This document shows, in pieces, positions 8,131-60,589 of a stretch of 64,000 nt of DNA. The notes under the pieces were generated by a model that was not told the DNA's origin, did not search any database, and worked only from the letters and a program-made list of their open reading frames with translations. The position numbers and the translations under genes were made by a program. The stretch's first letter is position 1, and every line of letters begins with the position of its first letter. Origin of the DNA: Alphaproteobacteria bacterium (lineage in GTDB: Bacteria > Pseudomonadota > Alphaproteobacteria > Bin95); the NCBI GenBank assembly GCA_965205265.1, contig CBDBGH010000003.1, forward strand, positions 1,888,001 through 1,952,000, read 5' to 3'.

Positions 8131-8355
8131 TCAGTCGAGGTTTTTCAGCCGGTCGGCGATCCAGAGCTTGATGAGCGACTGCCGGGGGACGCCGTGCAGT
8201 CTCGCCTGCCGGTCGAGAGCGGCGACCACCCAGGCCGGGAAGTCCACATTGACCCGCCTGGTCCCCAGATTGACGCGCTCGGCGCCGGACCAGTCCACAT
8301 GCGCGCTCACGTCCTCCCCGTCGTCGAATGCACGGTCGAACTCATGCGCTTTCAT
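8131..8355 (-). CDS. brnA: CopG/RHH antitoxin (BrnA-like)
   Basis: MKAHEFDRAFDDGED..RRVNVDFPAWVV..LDRQA..GVPRQSLIKLWIA; overlaps the toxin gene. Confidence 0.85.
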   Translation of the reverse strand: MKAHEFDRAFDDGEDVSAHVDWSGAERVNLGTRRVNVDFPAWVVAALDRQARLHGVPRQSLIKLWIADRLKNLD

Positions 8356-8605
8356 AGCGTTCCACCTCCTCCTTGCGGGCCCGGCGAACCGAGATAAGCC
8401 GTATGCGGTCGCCGCGGCGCGTGCAGATTGCCGACCAATGCCGTCCTCCGATCCTTCCGATGGCTATAAAGCGCGGTTCGTCGACCGTCCGCGCCGGCGC
8501 TTCGAGCAGCCAGGGATCGTCCCACAACGCCTGCGCATCTTCGAAGCCGATGCCGTGTTTCGCCTTGTTCCCCGCGCTCTTGTCCGGGTCGAATTCGAAA
8601 TCCAT
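8342..8605 (-). CDS. brnT: BrnT-family ribonuclease toxin
   Basis: MDFEFDPDKSAGNKAKHGIGF..IRLISVRRARKEE. Confidence 0.9.
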   Translation of the reverse strand: MDFEFDPDKSAGNKAKHGIGFEDAQALWDDPWLLEAPARTVDEPRFIAIGRIGGRHWSAICTRRGDRIRLISVRRARKEEVERYESA

Positions 8606-8839
8606 GTACATAATTTATATCAAAAATATTCAGATTCAATGCATTATTGGCCCTGCCGGGAACGCCGCCTCCCCTTCCCCCGCATTCCCGCCTCCAGCGG
8701 CGCGCGCCGGTCGCCCATTGCGCGAACGTCCAACCGGACCGTGCGGCCGCCTCTCGGAGAAGCCGGTGAGTTTCCCTGCCTTGGCGCCATTTGGAAACAG
8801 TGTCATGTTCTATTTTCCTGAAATAATTCTGGAATATTG

Positions 8840-8867
8840 CTTGCATTATCAAAAATTGTGTTACAAT
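8840..8867 (+). promoter_or_regulatory. Putative sigma70-type promoter (CTTGCA and extended -10 TGtTACAAT)
   Basis: AT-rich island; a homologous promoter CTTGCAT-N15-TATGAT lies on the - strand at 35681-35708. Confidence 0.55.
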
Positions 8868-8883
8868 GGGCGGCAGGAGGAAG

Positions 8884-9086
8884 GGAGCGGCGCTCGCGGG
8901 GCCGCTTCGTTCCGCCGTTCGCGCCGACGCGAAAAAAGCCCCCGATTCGGCCAACGGGTGAAGTGCGCCCTGCGTCCGGCCCGCGCGCGCGGGCGCACCC
9001 GGGCAATCAGGCGCGCGATTCGCGCCGCCGCGAAACGTGCGCCCACGGGCGCGGGCACCCACGCAGGATACGCGCGAATCAGGGTC
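8884..9086 (+). ncRNA. Candidate structured leader/ncRNA, copy 1
   Basis: Collinear with 35483-35675 (-); shared blocks CCCCGATTC, GAAGTGCG, GGGCAATCAGGCGCGCGA, CGCGCCGCCGCGAAACG, CGCAGGAT, ACGCGCGAAT..GGGTC. Confidence 0.55.
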
Positions 9087-9210
9087 CCGACGCTTCGGGT
9101 AGCCGGGCGGCGGAAGGAGAATTGGAACGGAATGGAACGAAACGCGATGGAGGAACGACATGCAGGATGCGGAGGGACGGGGCTTCGGCGAAACGGTCCC
9201 GATGCTCACA

Positions 9211-9240
9211 TGCTCCTCTCCCGCTTGCGGGAGAGGAGCA
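9211..9240. repeat. REP-like palindrome TGCTCCTCTCCCGC-TT-GCGGGAGAGGAGCA
   Basis: Perfect 14-bp inverted repeat; CTCTCCCGCTTGCGGGAGAG resembles a common proteobacterial REP type. Confidence 0.7.
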
Positions 9241-9316
9241 AACAAGGAACAAACGAAGGAGAGGTAAAACTTCATACCCAAACAGGCCACAGCCTATGCG
9301 CCCCGCGCATGCAGAT

Positions 9317-9386
9317 CATGACATCGCATGACACATCGCAGGGGGGGCCGCCGGGCGCGCATGACAAAACATGACATCCCATGACA
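9317..9386 (+). repeat. 10-bp-phased CATGACA repeats (9317, 9327, 9360, 9370, 9380)
   Basis: Read directly; 9361-9384 encodes MTKHDIP-stop. Confidence 0.85.
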
Positions 9387-9418
9387 GTCCCGCGAGAGGA
9401 CGCCGGCCGGCAGCGCCG

Positions 9419-10886: not shown

Positions 10887-11350
10887 CCGTCATGCCCGAA
10901 CGCCCCTCCTCCGTCATACCCGGACTTGTTCCACTGGTGTCCGGTTCAGACATTGAGGGGGAGCCGAACGGGATTTCGGGAGCGCGCGGCGTCCCCGGTC
11001 GGCCTCCTGTCCGTCATGCCCGAACGCCCCCCTTCGACAGGTTCAGGGCAGGCTCTTTCGTCATACCCGGACTTGTTCCGGGTATCTCTCTCAAGCGGCT
11101 CTGCCAGGCGGCCGTATGGATACCCGGAACAAGTCCGGGTATGACGGGAACAGGGCCGGGCCGCCGGGCGTCGATCCGGGTCCCGATCTCGCCGAACCCC
11201 TCGAAACCCGGTTGAATCCAGGCCATGCGCTCTGTCCCCCAAATCTAAACCGGACAACCGTGGACTTGTTCCGGGCATCCATGCGGCCGTCCGGCGGAAG
11301 CGGCCGAGGGAGATGCCCGGAACAAGTCCGGGAATGACGATATGGGGGCA
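10887..11350. repeat. Cluster of REP-like palindromes (GTCATACCCGGACTTGTTCCGGGTATC..GATACCCGGAACAAGTCCGGGTATGAC type, plus CCCTTCGACAGGTTCAGGGCAGG)
   Basis: Complete unit at 11059-11146; split unit at 10913-10930 + 11264-11339; same family at 36073-36161. Confidence 0.85.
10931..11263. mobile_element. Putative 333-bp MITE inserted into a REP loop
   Basis: Imperfect TIRs CCACTGGTGTCCGGTTCAGA and (rc) CCACGGTTGTCCGGTTTAGA; flanking direct repeat ACTTGTT at 10924-10930 and 11264-11270. Confidence 0.65.
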
Positions 11351-33360: not shown

Positions 33361-33570
33361 ATGACCAGAGGCGTTCCGGTGCTGGACCCGAAGGTTCACC
33401 TTGTCGGCGCAACGCCGGTGGCGCTCGCGCAGGCGCTGTTCCGCAACAAGAACCCGGCGCTACGCCCGGCCCGCGTTCGACAGGCCGTTGTCAGCGACGA
33501 GGTCGCGATAGAGAAGCCGGCGGCCGACGAAGCGGGCGACAGTGTCCCGCATCTGGGCGAGGGTTCCTGA
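33361..33570 (+). CDS. Small hypothetical protein convergent with and overlapping the transposase 3' end
   Basis: AAGGAG RBS; MTRGVPVLDPKVHLVGATPVALAQALFR. Confidence 0.45.
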   Translation: MTRGVPVLDPKVHLVGATPVALAQALFRNKNPALRPARVRQAVVSDEVAIEKPAADEAGDSVPHLGEGS

Positions 33571-34437
33571 GTCCCTGATGTTGTGCTTGCCGGCAAACTC
33601 ATCGGCATACCGATGCAGGTGCTTCGGGCTCATCTTGTGGAAGGTGCCCTTGTGAGCGCGCTTGAGCATCGACCAGAACGACTCCATGCCGTTGGTGTGG
33701 ATCATGCCGTCCACATATTCACCGACGCGGTGGTTGACCGACTCATGGGCGAAATCCGTACCGAGACCGACATAGCTGCGGTGTTCGTCGGTATAGACGG
33801 CCGCGCCGGGCTCTGCGTGTTCGCGCACGAAGCCTTGCAAAGTCGGCTTCTTCGTATCCGGCACGACTTCGACGCGGACCTCATTACTGTCGCGGTCCTT
33901 CATGCCGACAACCGCCGTCATGTGGGCCGTGCCTCCGCTTGTGAGCGTCTTGCGCTTCGCCTTCGGCATATTGACCTGACGACCGCCGAAATACGACTCG
34001 TCCACTTCTACCGGGCCGTCAAACTGCTCGTCGTCATCTTCAGCCCATGCCTGCCGGATGCGGTGAAGCATGAACCATGCGGTCGGCTGCGAAACGCCGA
34101 TGTCCCGCTGGAGTTTCATAGACGAAACCGACTTGAGCGAAGTCAGGACAAGGTAGATGGCAATCGCCCACTTGCGGAGCGAGACTTTCGACCGCTGCAT
34201 GGGCGTCCCGGTGCGGACAGAGAAGTAAGACCGACAGCCGCCGCACCAGTAGGGCATCGGCTTGCGGTTCTTCGTCTCCGTCGTCTCGGCATTGCCGCAA
34301 TGCGGGCAGTGCCGTCCCTTCGGCCAGATCGCTTCCTCGAACCATGCGGTCGCGGTCGCTTCATCGGGGAACATGTCAAACAGTTCAGGCAGCGTCAGCC
34401 CTTCGCGGTCGGCTCTTCCGGGGGCTTTCTTCGTCAC
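33460..34437 (-). CDS. IS1595-family transposase
   Basis: Zinc finger CPHCG..WCGGCRSYFSVRTGT; VEVDESYFGG; YTDE; HTNGMESFWSMLKR. Confidence 0.95.
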   Translation of the reverse strand: MTKKAPGRADREGLTLPELFDMFPDEATATAWFEEAIWPKGRHCPHCGNAETTETKNRKPMPYWCGGCRSYFSVRTGTPMQRSKVSLRKWAIAIYLVLTSLKSVSSMKLQRDIGVSQPTAWFMLHRIRQAWAEDDDEQFDGPVEVDESYFGGRQVNMPKAKRKTLTSGGTAHMTAVVGMKDRDSNEVRVEVVPDTKKPTLQGFVREHAEPGAAVYTDEHRSYVGLGTDFAHESVNHRVGEYVDGMIHTNGMESFWSMLKRAHKGTFHKMSPKHLHRYADEFAGKHNIRDSGTLAQMRDTVARFVGRRLLYRDLVADNGLSNAGRA

Positions 34438-34488
34438 GGGCGCGTCTCCCTTCAACACTCTGGAATATAGGGAGGATTGCAGCCCATG

Positions 34489-35424
34489 TCAAGTCATCTT
34501 TGTAATCCCCTCATGTTTTGTCATGGTCGGGTGCGAAACCGGGGTTTCGGGGCGGGTTGAAGGGGGCGGCCCATTCTCGAGCCGGTTGAGGCTGTCGGCC
34601 TGGCGGCGTTCGATGTTTTCCGGCGACCAGGGGTCGTGGATCTCGGCATAGCCGTTGCGGCGCTGGTAGAGCCAGTCGGTTTCCGCGCCCTCGGCCCTCT
34701 CCTCCTCGCCCGGGCGGTCGCCGTCGGCCCACTCGCCGGGGAACCGCTCCGGGTCGTAGGTGTCTTCGGGCGGGTCGTCAGCGAGGGGCAGGTCGTTTGC
34801 CGGAGGCGGCGGCGGGTCGAAGCGGACGGGCAGGCTCTCGCGCTCCTCGACGGCCGCCATGAGCCTTGCGGCAAGCTGCGCATGGGCGGCCCCGCCGAAG
34901 CCTTCCCCTGCCTCCATCGCCTCCCTGTTCCCGCAATGGCGGGCAAGGGCGCGCTCGGCGCGGGCACGGCCATTGCGCACGGCTTCGGCGAGGGGTCCCG
35001 GCACGGTGCCGGCCTCCTGCGCCTCGCCGGCCTCGATCTCCCCGAACTCGTCCTCCTCCGGCATCGACCAGAGCGCCGCCCGGTTGGCCGGCTGCGTCAG
35101 CCCCGCAATCTCCGCCTGGAAGCGGACGATCCGGACCATCATGTAGGCAGAGCCGCTCGCCACCGCCGCATCCCAGGCCTGCTCCAGGCGGGCGAGCACG
35201 ATCTGCGCCTCGTCCCTCTCGGTGCGCCGCCACGACATGCGGATGCGCCGCACCCGCTCGACGATCCAGGGGCGTTCCAGCAGGGCGGAGCCGGTCTGCC
35301 TTGCGGAGCGTTCGGCATAGCCGGCGCGCCTTGCGGCGTCTGCGGCATTGCCGGAGGCTGTGTAGTGGCGGCAGAAGGCTTCCTGCCGTGAGGAAAGGGA
35401 GAGGGTCGGGTCGAGCACGGGCAT
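34489..35424 (-). CDS. Orphan terminase small subunit-like protein with long acidic tail; 3' end interrupted by IS1595 (original end HDIP-stop at 31653-31670)
   Basis: LSSRQEAFCRHY..GNAADAARRAGYAERSARQTGSALL resembles the TerS HTH signature; GAAGGAG RBS. Confidence 0.75.
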   Translation of the reverse strand: MPVLDPTLSLSSRQEAFCRHYTASGNAADAARRAGYAERSARQTGSALLERPWIVERVRRIRMSWRRTERDEAQIVLARLEQAWDAAVASGSAYMMVRIVRFQAEIAGLTQPANRAALWSMPEEDEFGEIEAGEAQEAGTVPGPLAEAVRNGRARAERALARHCGNREAMEAGEGFGGAAHAQLAARLMAAVEERESLPVRFDPPPPPANDLPLADDPPEDTYDPERFPGEWADGDRPGEEERAEGAETDWLYQRRNGYAEIHDPWSPENIERRQADSLNRLENGPPPSTRPETPVSHPTMTKHEGITKMT

Positions 35425-35482
35425 GGGTGCGGCTCCTTCGTTCCGGTTCGCGTTCATCCGGCACACTGCCCCGGCGGGGAGC

Positions 35483-35675
35483 GACCCTTATTCGCGCGTC
35501 ATCCTGCGCGGGCGCCTGTGCGCGGGCGGGCGCGTTTCGCGGCGGCGCGGTTCGCGCGCCTGATTGCCCGCGCGCGAGGCAGGCTGAGGACGCACTTCGC
35601 CTGTCGGCTGAATCGGGGTCGTTCCGCACCGGGCCGGCGCGGGCGGGAAGCGGTCCGCGCGGACTCCACTCCCTC
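35483..35675 (-). ncRNA. Candidate structured leader/ncRNA, copy 2 (5' UTR of the TerS-like gene)
   Basis: Collinear with 8884-9086; pair-preserving substitutions in several stems. Confidence 0.55.
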
Positions 35676-35680
35676 GGACC

Positions 35681-35708
35681 ATCATAGCACATTTTCTGAA
35701 AATGCAAG
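35681..35708 (-). promoter_or_regulatory. Putative promoter CTTGCAT-N15-TATGAT with extended -10 TG
   Basis: Homologous to 8840-8867; AT-rich upstream tract. Confidence 0.55.
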
Positions 35709-35863
35709 TCATATAGAGAAATATTACATAATTTTTACGAACAATTTGCTCCCTGTATCGACCGGCCGCCGGATTCATGCCGGATTGCGCCAGCGGCGCC
35801 CTGCTCCGGCCTAGTGCGGTATCCGCCCGGTGTGAAACGAGGAGCGCTTCCATCCGGGGGTCT

Positions 35864-35996: not shown

Positions 35997-36072
35997 GGGG
36001 CTTATATGGATAGGTTGACAACAGGTTTGGGAGGCTTCGCACCTTCTCTCCGGCGTCCAACCCGCCCCCATA

Positions 36073-36161
36073 TCGTCATACCCGGACTTGCTCCGGGTAT
36101 CCATGCGGCCGTCCGGCGGCAGCGGTGGAGAGAGATACCCGGAACAAGTCCGGGTATGACG
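36073..36161. repeat. REP-like palindrome GTCATACCCGGACTTG..CAAGTCCGGGTATGAC
   Basis: Same family as the 10.9-11.3 kb cluster. Confidence 0.85.
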
Positions 36162-36240
36162 GAGGGGACGTGACGGAGGGGGCGTTGAGGTATGACGGAA
36201 GAAATGTCGTCGGTCTCCCCCGTCAACCTATCTTTGTAAT

Positions 36241-38156
36241 CCTGACTTCGACGGTTGGGCTGACTTCTGACCGATCTCGCGTCTGGAGTTTTCAGTAAAG
36301 CCAATGAGTTGGCAGTTGCGGTGCGGTCAAGCTGCGTTGTAGTGCCTAGTAAATCTTTGAGACTGTCAATGCCTCCGCCACGCGCTACACTCCCCCCATG
36401 TTCGTGCGCATCAAGACCTCCCCCAACAGCCCGCGACGCTCGGTCCAGATCGTCGAGGCCGTGCGCGACGGCGGCAAGGTCCGACAGCGCATCGTCCGCC
36501 ATGTCGGCGTGGCCATGGACGAGGACGAGCTCGAGCGCCTGAGGCAGCTCGGCGAGTACGTCAAGGCGAAGCTGGAGGACGAGCGTCAGCCGGCATTGTT
36601 TGCGCCCGAGAAGATCGCTGAGCAGGCGATCCGTGTCGGCCGCCGGGGGGACGGCAAGGAGGAACTCCCGGTCGACCTCAAGCAGCTTGAAGAGGAGCAG
36701 CGCCTGATCACAGGCATCCACGAGGTCTATGGCGAGATCTACCGGCTGCTGGGCCTCGACGCGCTGCTGCCGCGCTCGCGCTACCGGGCCTCCCATGACG
36801 CGCTGTTCCATGTGGTGATGGCGCGGGTAGCCAACCCCGACAGCAAGCGGGGCAGCGTGCGCCGGCTCGAGGAGGACTTCGGCGTGAGTCTTCCGCTCGA
36901 GAAGGTCTACCGGATGATGGATCAGCTCGACGCGACGGTGATCGAGCGACTGCGCACGCGCGTCGGCGAGGCGAGCCGGTCGCTGCTGCCGGAGCCGGTC
37001 GCGATCCTCTTCTTCGATTGCACCACGCTCTACTTCGAGACGGCCGCCGAGGACGAGCTTCGCCAGCACGGCTTCAGCAAGGACGGCAAACACAAGGACT
37101 CGCAGGTTCTGCTGGCGCTGATGGTGACGCGCGAAGGGCTGCCGATCAGCTACGAGGTCTTCCCCGGCGCCACCTACGAGGGACACAGCATGGTCCCGGT
37201 CCTGCAGGACATGCAGCGCCGCCACCAGGTGGAGCGCACGGTATGCGTGGCCGACCGGGGCATGCTGAGCGCCGACAACCTCGACGCCATGGACGCCATC
37301 GGCGGCGAGTATGTCGTCGGCGCGCGGCTGCGCAAGCTGCCGCTCGCGCTGCTGGGGCAGGTTCTCGACCCCGGGACCTATGCCCCGCTGGAGGGCTCAC
37401 AGGACCGCCGGGTCGGCGAGTGGGAGTACAAGGGCCGTCGCCTGATCGTCGTCTTCTGCCCCCAGCGCGCACGCAAGGACGCGCACGAGCGCCGCCATCA
37501 GGTGGAACGCCTGCTCGACAGGCTGGCCCGCAGCGACAATCCCAGGGAACTGCTCTCCAATCACGGGGCGAAGCGCTTCATCGCCGTCGAGGGCGACGCA
37601 CGGCTCACGGTGAACCCGGAGAAGATCGCCGAGGCCGCACGATGGGACGGGCTCACCGGCGTCATCACCAATCTGCGCGACGCGCGCGTCACCGAAGTGA
37701 TGGCTCACTACCAGGGGCTCTGGCAGGTCGAGGAGAGCTTCCGGATCACCAAACACGACCTGAAGATACGTCCCATCTGGCACTGGAACCCGGACCGGAT
37801 CCGCGCTCACATCGCCATCGCCTTCCTGGCCTTCGCCTGCGTTCGACACCTTGCGTACCGCGTCGCCATCCAGAAGCGGCGGATGTCCCCGGAGGTCATC
37901 CGCTCCGCCCTCGTCCACCGCCAGTGCTCCCTGCTGCGCTGTCGGCAATCGGGCAACCGCTACGTCATCCCCTCGAAGCCGACACCGGCGGCGGAGCAGA
38001 TTTACGCAACCATGGGGCTGCCCCTGACGATCACCCCGTATCAACTCGCCTGACCGTCGACGAAGCACGGCTCGAAGAAATGCCGGATGTAGTGCCTAGC
38101 CGAAATGAGAACCAGGCAATATCAACTACTTATGCGAATCAACCGTCGAAGTCAGG
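36241..38156 (+). mobile_element. IS1634-family insertion sequence with 82-bp flanking direct repeats
   Basis: 17-bp TIR CCTGACTTCGACGGTTG; 36159-36240 is identical to 38157-38238. Confidence 0.93.
36398..38053 (+). CDS. IS1634-family transposase
   Basis: LFFDCTTLYFE, GFSKDGKHKDSQV, VADRGMLS, LWQVEESFRITKHDLKIRPIWHW..RIRAHI. Confidence 0.95.
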   Translation: MFVRIKTSPNSPRRSVQIVEAVRDGGKVRQRIVRHVGVAMDEDELERLRQLGEYVKAKLEDERQPALFAPEKIAEQAIRVGRRGDGKEELPVDLKQLEEEQRLITGIHEVYGEIYRLLGLDALLPRSRYRASHDALFHVVMARVANPDSKRGSVRRLEEDFGVSLPLEKVYRMMDQLDATVIERLRTRVGEASRSLLPEPVAILFFDCTTLYFETAAEDELRQHGFSKDGKHKDSQVLLALMVTREGLPISYEVFPGATYEGHSMVPVLQDMQRRHQVERTVCVADRGMLSADNLDAMDAIGGEYVVGARLRKLPLALLGQVLDPGTYAPLEGSQDRRVGEWEYKGRRLIVVFCPQRARKDAHERRHQVERLLDRLARSDNPRELLSNHGAKRFIAVEGDARLTVNPEKIAEAARWDGLTGVITNLRDARVTEVMAHYQGLWQVEESFRITKHDLKIRPIWHWNPDRIRAHIAIAFLAFACVRHLAYRVAIQKRRMSPEVIRSALVHRQCSLLRCRQSGNRYVIPSKPTPAAEQIYATMGLPLTITPYQLA

Positions 38157-38425
38157 ACGGAGGGGACGTGACGGAGGGGGCGTTGAGGTATGACGGAAGA
38201 AATGTCGTCGGTCTCCCCCGTCAACCTATCTTTGTAATCTCCTATCGAAGGACGGCCGGACTTCCGGTTCAACATGAACGGGTCCTGCTCTAGCCGTTCG
38301 AGGGCGAGGACAGGCGGAGTCGGGGCGGCAGTCCTTGCGCCTCCTTTGTCACGATCCAACAAAGTCGGATGTCGCAATAATCCGGCCTATAGTTGTCGAA
38401 CGGACAAGGACAAGGAGCGTGCGAA

Positions 38426-43034: not shown

Positions 43035-43503
43035 GTGGACGGTCGAGGTCTCGCTCGGCGAGGGCGAATGGCCCGACGGCGAAGAGGCCGCCGACTGGTG
43101 CAGCCGCGCGGCATGCGCGGCGCTGGCCGGCGCCGGGCGAACCGAACCTGCGGAGCTTTCCGTTCTGCTCGGCAGCGATGCCGAGCTCCGCGCGTTGAAC
43201 CGCCGCTACCGGGGCCGCGACAAGCCGACGAATGTGCTCTCCTTCCCTTCCGGCGCCGCGCCCTGGCCGGGCGGGCCGCCGCTGCTCGGCGAGATTGCGC
43301 TGGCGGGCGCAACGGTCCGGCGCGAGGCCGTCGAGCAGCGCAAGACGCTGCACGACCACCTGTGCCACCTCGTGGTCCACGGGACATTGCATCTCCTCGG
43401 GTTCGATCATGCAACCGAAGCGGCAGCCGTGCGTATGGAGCGGCTGGAGGCGCGTTGCCTCGAAACCCTGTCGGTAGCCGACCCCTATGAGGAGCGGGGC
43501 TGA
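43027..43503 (+). CDS. ybeY: rRNA maturation RNase YbeY
   Basis: LNRRYRGRDKPTNVLSFP, HGTLHLLGFDH. Confidence 0.96.
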   Translation: MDKWTVEVSLGEGEWPDGEEAADWCSRAACAALAGAGRTEPAELSVLLGSDAELRALNRRYRGRDKPTNVLSFPSGAAPWPGGPPLLGEIALAGATVRREAVEQRKTLHDHLCHLVVHGTLHLLGFDHATEAAAVRMERLEARCLETLSVADPYEERG

Positions 43504-60497: not shown

Positions 60498-60589
60498 TGG
60501 CGGACAGGGAGGGATTCGAACCCTCGGTACGCCTGTTGACGTACGACGGATTAGCAATCCGCTGGTTTAAGCCACTCACCCACCTGTCC
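60498..60589 (-). tRNA. tRNA-Ser (GCT)
   Basis: GGACAGG acceptor stem, anticodon arm GCGGA-TTGCTAA-TCCGT, long variable arm, GGTTCGAATCC, encoded CCA. Confidence 0.97.

Follow-up and report, generated by a model that had tools for sequence, protein, structure and literature searches.

The element discussed here, a short repeat found in a 64,000-nucleotide window of an Alphaproteobacteria bacterium genome, shares traits with several kinds of described system. Miniature inverted-repeat transposable elements (MITEs) and the Correia/NEMIS repeats of Neisseria are hundreds of bases long, occur in tens to hundreds of intergenic copies, have no transposase of their own and can carry promoter elements. 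The REPIN/RAYT, IS200/IS605 and IS91 types are repeats that lack inverted terminal repeats and whose ends form hairpins. Packaging systems with a small terminase (TerS) and a pac site, and satellites of the Staphylococcus aureus pathogenicity island and phage-inducible chromosomal island (SaPI/PICI) type, have short phased repeats in or near the TerS gene; in phage P1, pac has hexamer clusters at both ends. Finally, structured promoter-proximal leaders stand before late or packaging genes in the lambda PR′ 6S/qut region and in the HK022 put RNAs.

In the window, two stretches, 8884-9086 on the plus strand (copy A) and 35483-35675 on the minus strand (copy B), were taken by a first-pass annotation, made from the letters alone, for a structured RNA motif kept in two diverged copies. 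Both stretches lie where it placed them; they have 77% mean column identity and can be aligned over about 400 nt, including an AT-rich region upstream. Two is the wrong count, as their own genome holds 71 near-full-length copies. The sequence finding is thus real but its kind was misjudged: the element is a genus-restricted, high-copy modular repeat, previously undescribed as far as the texts reached by a full-text literature search extend (sponge-symbiont and alphaproteobacterial repeats, orphan TerS). By a slight balance of probability, the motif is the 5′ promoter and leader module of a multi-part element that is lineage-specific, high in copy number, probably mobile and phage-derived.

Copies, range and layout of the repeat

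The source genome comprises 5.70 Mb in three contigs (C1-C3) and is 98.98% complete, with a contamination estimate of 7.28%. A first search gave 42 matches among the 40 scored of 135 candidates. Iterated nhmmer gives 79 hits, 71 of which extend over more than 200 positions of the model and lie without exception on contig C3; 67 of these 71 sequences are distinct. By eye, the hit list shows no strand bias along the chromosome. Identical copies with identical flanks occur far apart on C3 (at 223 and 4632790, and at 43166 and 5414158), and these pairs may be an assembly duplication.

Of 16 other genomes in the genus, 13 have matches (14 of 17 with the source genome), each with 17-21 scored matches and 94-224 first-look candidates. 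Eight genomes from two sister genera have none, and 16 genomes from other families contribute a single weak match (E 4e-5) in one genome. An exact 35-nt pattern from the most conserved part of the element finds 34 contig stretches in a species-representative genome collection, from nine metagenome-assembled genomes, eight labelled Alphaproteobacteria bacterium and one Bryobacterales. Genus relatives occur in contigs of runs labelled sponge metagenome. The core pattern is absent from the IMG/VR search, and copy A finds no DNA match by BLAST in collections of phages and plasmids. The first-pass annotation recognized no Rfam family, and Rfam 15 bears this out: neither copy is matched at gathering thresholds or at E up to 10, the best scores around the two copies being 22.9 bits (threshold 100) and 21.9 bits (threshold 41.2), and a tRNA at 60501-60589 (minus strand) is the sole match at gathering thresholds in the whole window. 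MicroRNA-family rows in the permissive Rfam search are palindrome noise.

Units measure 0.35-1.4 kb. Likeness between copies begins in an AT-rich stretch containing ..TTGTTC.., which is the left end. Two promoter-like boxes follow, with the family consensus TTGACa and TGnTAnnAT. Box conservation was counted over 120 aligned copies, the denominators being copies with letters at the position. The TTG box is kept in 85-86 of 87-88 copies, the TG in 83/97 and 89/96, and the A and T of the second hexamer in 93/104 and 95/106. Upstream of the TTG box, TTC boxes stand at -14/-13 in 41 of 50 copies and at -35 to -33 in 35 of 50. A 10-bp palindrome, also upstream of the TTG box, was considered as an operator and dropped, being present in merely 22 of 50 copies. 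The boxes are better conserved than the adjacent leader, chiefly in copies without an open reading frame (ORF), and it is from this family conservation that an extended -10 promoter is inferred. A GC-rich leader of 210-235 nt comes next and encloses both stretches of the original motif.

The right end is a separate 3′ module whose nhmmer family has 77 hits. It lies downstream on the same strand for 61 of the 71 5′ modules in the source genome, 59 of them within 1.3 kb, and for 59 of 66 at loci in other genomes. The module ends in CATGACA repeats: the short form has two at 10-bp phase, and the long form continues with a GC-rich spacer (about 33 bp) and a further three repeats. The pattern of a phased CATGAC pair is observed three times in the window, all in copy A, versus 0.02 expected, and contig C3 has 136 successive CATGAC pairs exactly 10 nt apart, the next spacing occurring 23 times. 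Units that encode a 311-aa protein (type 1, see below) share the terminal repeats only, which are located in the last codons of the ORF (..TMTFHD..). The unit ends, ..TTGTTC.. and ..CATGACA, have no inverted repeat common to the copies.

The phased repeats are putative sites for a DNA-binding protein, and the type-1 protein of the units themselves is the first candidate to bind them. Read on the minus strand, the arrays (e.g. 9360-9386) give TGTCATG at a 10-bp period, which we take to resemble direct-repeat sites of the OmpR/PhoB type (Pho-box half-site CTGTCAT); a response regulator would thus be an alternative binder. In copy B, an IS1595-family transposase gene (DDE_Tnp_IS1595, E 1e-41; 33460-34510, minus strand) sits in the last CATGAC repeat, and the insertion alters the C terminus of the copy B TerS-type ORF relative to its paralogues.

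Structure and conservation of the leader

Leader conservation and pairing were assessed on a MAFFT sequence-based alignment of 109 distinct copies, with shuffles and slid partners as controls. Mean pairwise identity is 0.64 in the 5′ region of two hairpins, P1 and P2, and 0.63 in the P3 region. It is 0.76 in the 5′ flank of a conserved core, 0.89 in the core centre (GGGCAATCAGG..GCGAAACG), 0.75 in the 3′ flank and 0.59 in the leader tail. The GGGCAATCAGG block, which the first-pass annotation had singled out as invariant, nearly is: its columns (9001-9011 in copy A) are at least 90% conserved in the 109 copies. The purine-rich tail at 9100-9165 is read as non-coding, because the frames that follow it are not the same from copy to copy. 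A coding role for the leader or for the ORF-less middle was likewise rejected, since copies do not preserve a frame there. At 9211-9240, in the ORF-less middle part of copy A, lies a hairpin whose perfect stem of 11 bp carries a loop of 4 nt (CTCCTCTCCCGCTTGCGGGAGAGGAG); other copies have differing GC hairpins at the equivalent site.

Single-sequence folding beats dinucleotide shuffles only modestly. Copy A folds at -130.9 kcal/mol and copy B at -113.5 kcal/mol, with 2 and 10 of 200 shuffles as stable, respectively (z values in Table 1). In the alignment, P1 and P2 at the 5′ end are both supported by covariation. Together they pair in 76.6% of cells versus 72.1 ± 0.5 in shuffles (0 of 500 as high), with 141 doubly changed cells versus 85 ± 6, and their covariation score is 0.226 versus 0.169 in shuffles and at most 0.129 with slid partners. 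Changes are two-sided; for example, one pair occurs as GC 31, CG 15, GU 14 and AU 5 times, and another as UA 35 and CG 24 times. Kinship among sequences can beat shuffles without structure, but the slid control argues otherwise for P1 and P2.

The remaining helices behave differently. The first-pass annotation had named a series of stems kept despite sequence differences; its first, GGAGCGG/CCGCTTC, is P1 and stands, whereas the others fail the controls, are invariant or change on one side only. GUGCG/CGCGC and GGCGCG/CGCGCC pair in 98.8-98.9% of cells and are essentially invariant, hence uninformative on covariation. The CGCG-AAA-CGYG helix shows one-sided changes only, and CCUGCG/CGCAGG is 76% paired, with no more than three doubly changed cells (range 0-3) at any of its six pairs. 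For UUC-GCC/GGY-GAA, covariation does not exceed that in shuffles, 55 of 500 of which reach it, and a +1 slide scores higher. The closing helix CCC..ATTC/GAAT..GGG is 63.5% paired versus 64.9% in shuffles, 499 of 500 of which are as high. P3 (CCCG/CGGG), P7 and P8, paired in 73.6%, 69.6% and 50.6% of cells with few double changes, were dropped. Ten candidate helices taken together pair in 79.1% of cells versus 77.8% in shuffles, and therefore the pairing is mostly column composition.

RNAalifold on the 109 sequences returns 9 pairs at -6.9 kcal/mol; none of them is compensatory, and the covariation term is -0.02. Several further approaches were set aside. Mutual information over all column pairs of 65 copies from the source genome is dominated by subfamily signal and gives no helices. 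RNAalifold on the copies of that genome, a maximum-expected-accuracy fold from averaged pair probabilities and a scan for antidiagonal runs either make P1 alone prominent or pair GC runs indiscriminately. The core is conserved as sequence, not demonstrably as structure. A known repeat, or a lack of covariation, was to count against the proposed RNA motif; the element did prove to be a repeat, but of no described kind, and only the two 5′ hairpins covary. These results also carry a caution for RNA-motif hunting: in DNA of 68% G+C, two diverged copies of a repeat mimic conserved stems.

Table 1. Parts of copies A and B in window coordinates, with the evidence for each (MFE, minimum free energy)
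Feature	Position	Strand	Details	Evidence
Copy A, AT-rich left end	8800..8840	+	..TGTTC..GAAATAATTC..; start of likeness	5′ alignment boundary, TTC boxes
Copy A, boxes (putative promoter)	8841..8867	+	TTGCAT 8841-8846, 15-nt spacer, TGt 8859-8861, TACAAT 8862-8867	family conservation
Copy A, GC-rich leader	8873..9100	+	encloses the motif first noticed at 8884-9086	alignment; MFE z = -2.50
Copy A, hairpin P1	8879..8913	+	GGAA.GGAGCGGC ... GCCGCTTC.TTCC	two-sided changes in 9/12 pairs
Copy A, hairpin P2	8918..8933	+	TTCGCG CCGA CGCGAA, then A run	two-sided changes in 3/6 pairs
Copy A, sequence-conserved core	8963..9090	+	second AATCAGG at 9078-9084	higher pairwise identity
Copy A, near-invariant core centre	9001-9037	+	GGGCAATCAGG..GCGAAACG	within core
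Copy A, purine-rich tail	9100..9165	+	repeated GGAAC/GGA; conserved start of ORF-less middle part	downstream frames differ between copies
Copy A, 3′ module	9270..9394	+	CATGAC at 9317, 9327, 9360, 9370, 9380; two clusters around GC-rich spacer	nhmmer, alignment
Copy B, AT-rich left end and boxes	35681..35745	-		alignment, family conservation
Copy B, boxes (putative promoter)	35707-35681	-	TTGCAT 35707-35702, 15-nt spacer, TGc, TATGAT 35686-35681	
Copy B, leader	35445..35675	-	includes the stretch first noticed at 35483-35675	alignment; MFE z = -1.57
Copy B, ribosome-binding site	35439-35433	-	GAAGGAG; ATG at 35424	sequence
Copy B, cargo ORF	34489..35424	-	311-aa protein, N-terminal TerS-type helix-turn-helix	Pfam, PHROG, PDB profile, model, dN/dS
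Copy B, terminal repeat	34511..34525	-	CATGACAAAACATGA; cut by IS1595-family insertion starting ~34510	unit ends ~1205 nt from start

Cargo proteins and genomic context

Some units carry a protein gene, always downstream of the leader, on the same strand and with its own ribosome-binding site. Type 1 encodes a 311-aa protein with a TerS-type helix-turn-helix (HTH), and type 2 a protein of about 200 aa (206 aa in the query copy); the two show no mutual similarity. Behind the 71 copies of the source genome there are seven full and two partial ORFs of type 1, nine ORFs of type 2 and neither in 53 cases, copy A among them; at least two of these 53 retain N-terminal fragments of the 206-aa ORF. Type-1 units are 1.24 kb long and about 94% identical between copies, and internally deleted type-1 units exist. 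A link to TerS, as first proposed, thus holds for copy B, whose leader directly precedes a TerS-type ORF, but not for the family as a whole. Nor is the element consistently associated with one downstream gene family, as a cis-regulatory leader would be: its cargo is mixed, and of the host genes next downstream 34 are on the same strand and 36 on the opposite one, and therefore the units are not leaders of host genes. They are intergenic, according to an ORF call based on third-codon-position G+C that covers 84% of C3.

Several lines of evidence point to a TerS-type DNA-binding domain at the N terminus of the 311-aa protein. Residues 11-85 match Pfam Terminase_2 (E 4e-13; 50.6 bits against a cut-off of 26.1) over model positions 2-73 of 141, and the protein also matches PHROG 51. 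A profile built from 27 homologues finds the SF6 small-terminase DNA-binding domain, with 4zc3, 2cmp and 3zqp at E 1e-4 to 5e-4. In the AlphaFold model, confidence is high at residues 11-60 alone (predicted local distance difference test, pLDDT, 90-95), and with Foldseek this predicted HTH domain superposes on 4zc3 with a target-normalized TM-score of 0.86 and a root-mean-square deviation of 0.9 Å over 53 columns; for the whole model, E values exceed 0.1 (0.23 for 4zc3). The helical or disordered remainder (pLDDT 45-81) matches nothing in Foldseek, and the oligomerization core in the second half of the Terminase_2 model is unmatched.

All seven Terminase_2 matches in the source genome belong to the units, and searches of that genome find no large terminase (TerL; PF03354, PF03237, PF04466) and no HK97 capsid (PF05065), the sole trace being a sub-threshold portal fragment (C2:20818-21054). 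Relatives of the 311-aa protein number at least 362 at 90% clustering in metagenomes, with several per long contig. tblastn finds none in 50,697 phage records, and those in IMG/VR are similar in the HTH region only (28-36% identical). The 206-aa protein has a weak PHROG match to a family of unknown function (E 8e-5) and, in the ESM Atlas, hypothetical clusters only (0.84-0.85). NCBIfam and PADLOC return no hit to either cargo protein, and Pfam likewise reveals no catalytic domain.

Judging by median ratios of nonsynonymous to synonymous substitution rates (dN/dS) among copies of the source genome, both cargo proteins are under purifying selection: the values are 0.28 for type 1 (7 sequences, 20 pairs) and 0.27 for type 2 (9 sequences, 36 pairs). 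Type-1 copies in that genome are 95-100% identical to each other, and the best copy from another genome is 75% identical, a pattern that fits within-lineage amplification or conversion. Across the genus, both cargo types track the element: type 1 occurs in 12 of 16 genomes and type 2 in 14 of 16, and the two genomes G001 and G003 have neither cargo and no element. Among 20 genomes of sister genera, neither cargo is found except for four weak TerS-like hits.

Presence varies among relatives. The copy adjacent to the esterase and gluQ genes is in the same place in genomes G000, G014, G007 and G005, partly deleted in G007, and G009 and G004 have none within 1.5 kb; the flanking genes are 89-92% identical. 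Loci L038 and L033 are filled elsewhere and correspond to empty sites of 26-27 nt in the source genome. For two further candidates, L082 and L080, the site in the source genome holds other sequence, in part another repeat.

Copy A is flanked by a BrnT/CopG-type toxin-antitoxin pair and by a carboxylesterase gene that converges on it. The BrnT ribonuclease toxin gene (8342-8611, Pfam E 3e-25) and the CopG-type antitoxin gene (8131-8355) are on the minus strand and diverge from copy A. A second abundant, palindromic intergenic repeat (..CATACCCGGACTTGTTCCGGGTATC..) occurs in the window at ~10930-11350 and ~36000-36175 and elsewhere at C3:2012208-2012418 and C3:1186579-1186744. This CATACCCGGACTTGTTCCGGGTATC repeat reads IPGLVPGI or TSPGMT in spurious ORFs and fills some of the "empty" element sites. 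An IS4-type transposase gene (DDE_Tnp_1) lies at 36398-38053 on the plus strand, and the 1.92-kb stretch at ~36240-38160 is 99.95% identical to stretches adjoining two other type-1 units.

Competing readings and known systems

If the motif is indeed the promoter and leader module of a mobile, phage-derived element, it would drive and lead the cargo mRNA in units with an ORF and yield a stand-alone non-coding RNA in units without one. P1 and P2 would act as 5′ stabilizing hairpins, and the core would be a sequence-specific binding platform, as RNA or DNA, not a ligand-sensing fold. The ORF-less units may have arisen by deletion and would spread or persist as mobile DNA of phage origin by means of a trans-acting factor.

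A number of observations weigh against this reading, some concerning transcription and others mobility. Among the 50 copies of the source genome in which a strict search located both boxes, the spacer is 15 nt in 38, 16 nt in 7, 13 nt in 4 and 17 nt in 1; a sigma-70 scan calls no promoter at either window copy, because it requires a spacer of 16-18 nt. A scan of copy A finds no terminator-like site. As a strand test, G-U was compared with A-C: the counts are 131 versus 90 in P1 and 40 versus 60 in P2, with no clear excess of G-U that would point to selection on the RNA strand. Contigs from two sponge metatranscriptome runs (X19, X20) cover the element, but a DNA-labelled sponge metagenome run (X16) has the same depth profile, and run X24 yields no contig there; these data are contigs, not reads, and the agreement of the profiles allows no conclusion on expression either way. 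As for mobility, four filled-versus-empty comparisons reveal no terminal inverted repeats or target duplications, at junctions that are fuzzy partly because other repeats occupy the "empty" sites. No unit encodes a transposase or a recognizable catalytic domain, and among the 17 genus genomes, Y1 HUH transposases (PF01797) occur in one and Y2 HUH transposases (PF04986) in three, including a fragment of 48 aa. Gene conversion, instead of transposition, could account for the homogeneity of copies within a genome. Moreover, loci in other genomes were selected for their similarity to copy A, so that the cargo survey leans towards ORF-less units.

Three other readings draw on the same evidence. The host might keep the units for their leader RNA, as multicopy genes for trans-acting small RNAs (sRNAs) co-activated through the operator-like AT-rich region, with the cargo secondary. 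The greater conservation of the boxes than of the adjacent leader in ORF-less copies, the identity of the core between copies and species (0.89), the covariation of the 5′ hairpins and the retention of some copies at orthologous sites in four genomes all speak for it. The same orthologous sites also tell against it, since their 5′ modules diverge more than the flanking genes and for G007 and G005 nothing aligns ahead of the 3′ module. Some copies are decaying or internally deleted (locus L087), the scan of copy A shows no terminator-like site, contigs from the RNA runs have the profile of the DNA run, and RNAalifold gives no family-wide fold. The number of copies, about 70 and up to 224 first-look candidates per genome, far exceeds any family of sRNA paralogues known to us. 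An sRNA family of this kind is credible but unlikely. A further alternative is a repeat that works purely as DNA, in which core, AT-rich end and CATGAC arrays would be protein-binding or recombination sites (e.g. for packaging initiation, integrase arms or response regulators) and the promoter and stems mere by-products of GC-rich sequence. The core helices are invariant or fail the controls, G-U pairs are not in excess, the spacer is just 15 nt, and the two CATGAC clusters at exact 10-bp phase resemble protein-binding arrays. However, P1 and P2 covary, and the cargo ORFs are fixed in place and strand, have their own ribosome-binding sites and are under purifying selection. Such ORFs need a promoter, for which the boxes are the sole conserved candidate, and the boxes therefore count against a DNA-only repeat, which is quite doubtful.

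Closest to the first-pass annotation is a structured cis-regulatory RNA, of riboswitch or attenuator type, that governs TerS expression. Copy B and six other intact units do place the leader directly before a TerS-type ORF, and in the MFE fold of copy B, GCUCC of the leader pairs with GGAGC of the ribosome-binding site. Sequestration of that site was examined and rejected, as the fold is no stabler than shuffles (z = 0.61) and the type-2 site is open. The cargo survey, with no such ORF behind 53 of 71 copies and a different one behind nine, largely refutes TerS control, which, with no terminator found and no core covariation, is very improbable.

A bolder reading is a long shot. The units could be a new kind of minimal phage parasite or a phage-responsive host system: "packaging cassettes" of 0.4-1.3 kb, each with a phage-type late promoter, a leader RNA, a TerS-type protein in the master copies and phased TerS-binding repeats. 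Switched on jointly upon infection, they would steer the large terminase of the phage to some 70 chromosomal sites, either sabotaging its packaging as a defence or spreading host DNA by chromosome-wide transduction. On the favoured reading, a mobile, phage-derived element with its own promoter and leader would mean that one uncultured genus holds a self-contained expression module in tens to hundreds of copies. The module could act by itself or drive two phage-like proteins peculiar to the lineage, including a small-terminase DNA-binding protein that is an orphan in its genome. It raises the questions of how repeats without inverted ends or a transposase spread, what role multicopy orphan TerS genes have and whether a promoter-bearing repeat can rewire intergenic transcription genome-wide.

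Set beside the known systems, the element resembles each in part. It shares with MITEs and Correia repeats a short, multicopy, intergenic unit without a transposase and a presence that varies among relatives. Unlike both, it shows no terminal inverted repeats or target duplications at the four compared sites, it has a full promoter-like region with a 200-nt leader, and some units carry protein genes under purifying selection. The transposase-bearing relative expected of a MITE was not found, the longest units holding only the TerS-type or 206-aa ORF. It differs from the REPIN/RAYT, IS200/IS605 and IS91 types in that HUH transposases (Y1 in 1/17 genomes, Y2 in 3/17) do not track the element (14/17), and in that, by eye, its copies show no strand bias. 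Like the TerS and pac systems, it combines short phased repeats, grouped in two clusters on either side of a spacer, with a TerS-type HTH gene. Here, however, there are seven orphan TerS copies per genome with no TerL or HK97 capsid found, the 1.24-kb units lack the integrase and replication genes of satellites, and Terminase_2 is matched over positions 2-73 of 141 only. In contrast to the lambda and HK022 leaders, the element has no sequence or Rfam match to them, about 70 chromosomal copies that are mostly gene-less and no terminator that could be found, but like those phage RNAs it presents, in multiple copies, a leader of about 200 nt right behind promoter-like boxes.

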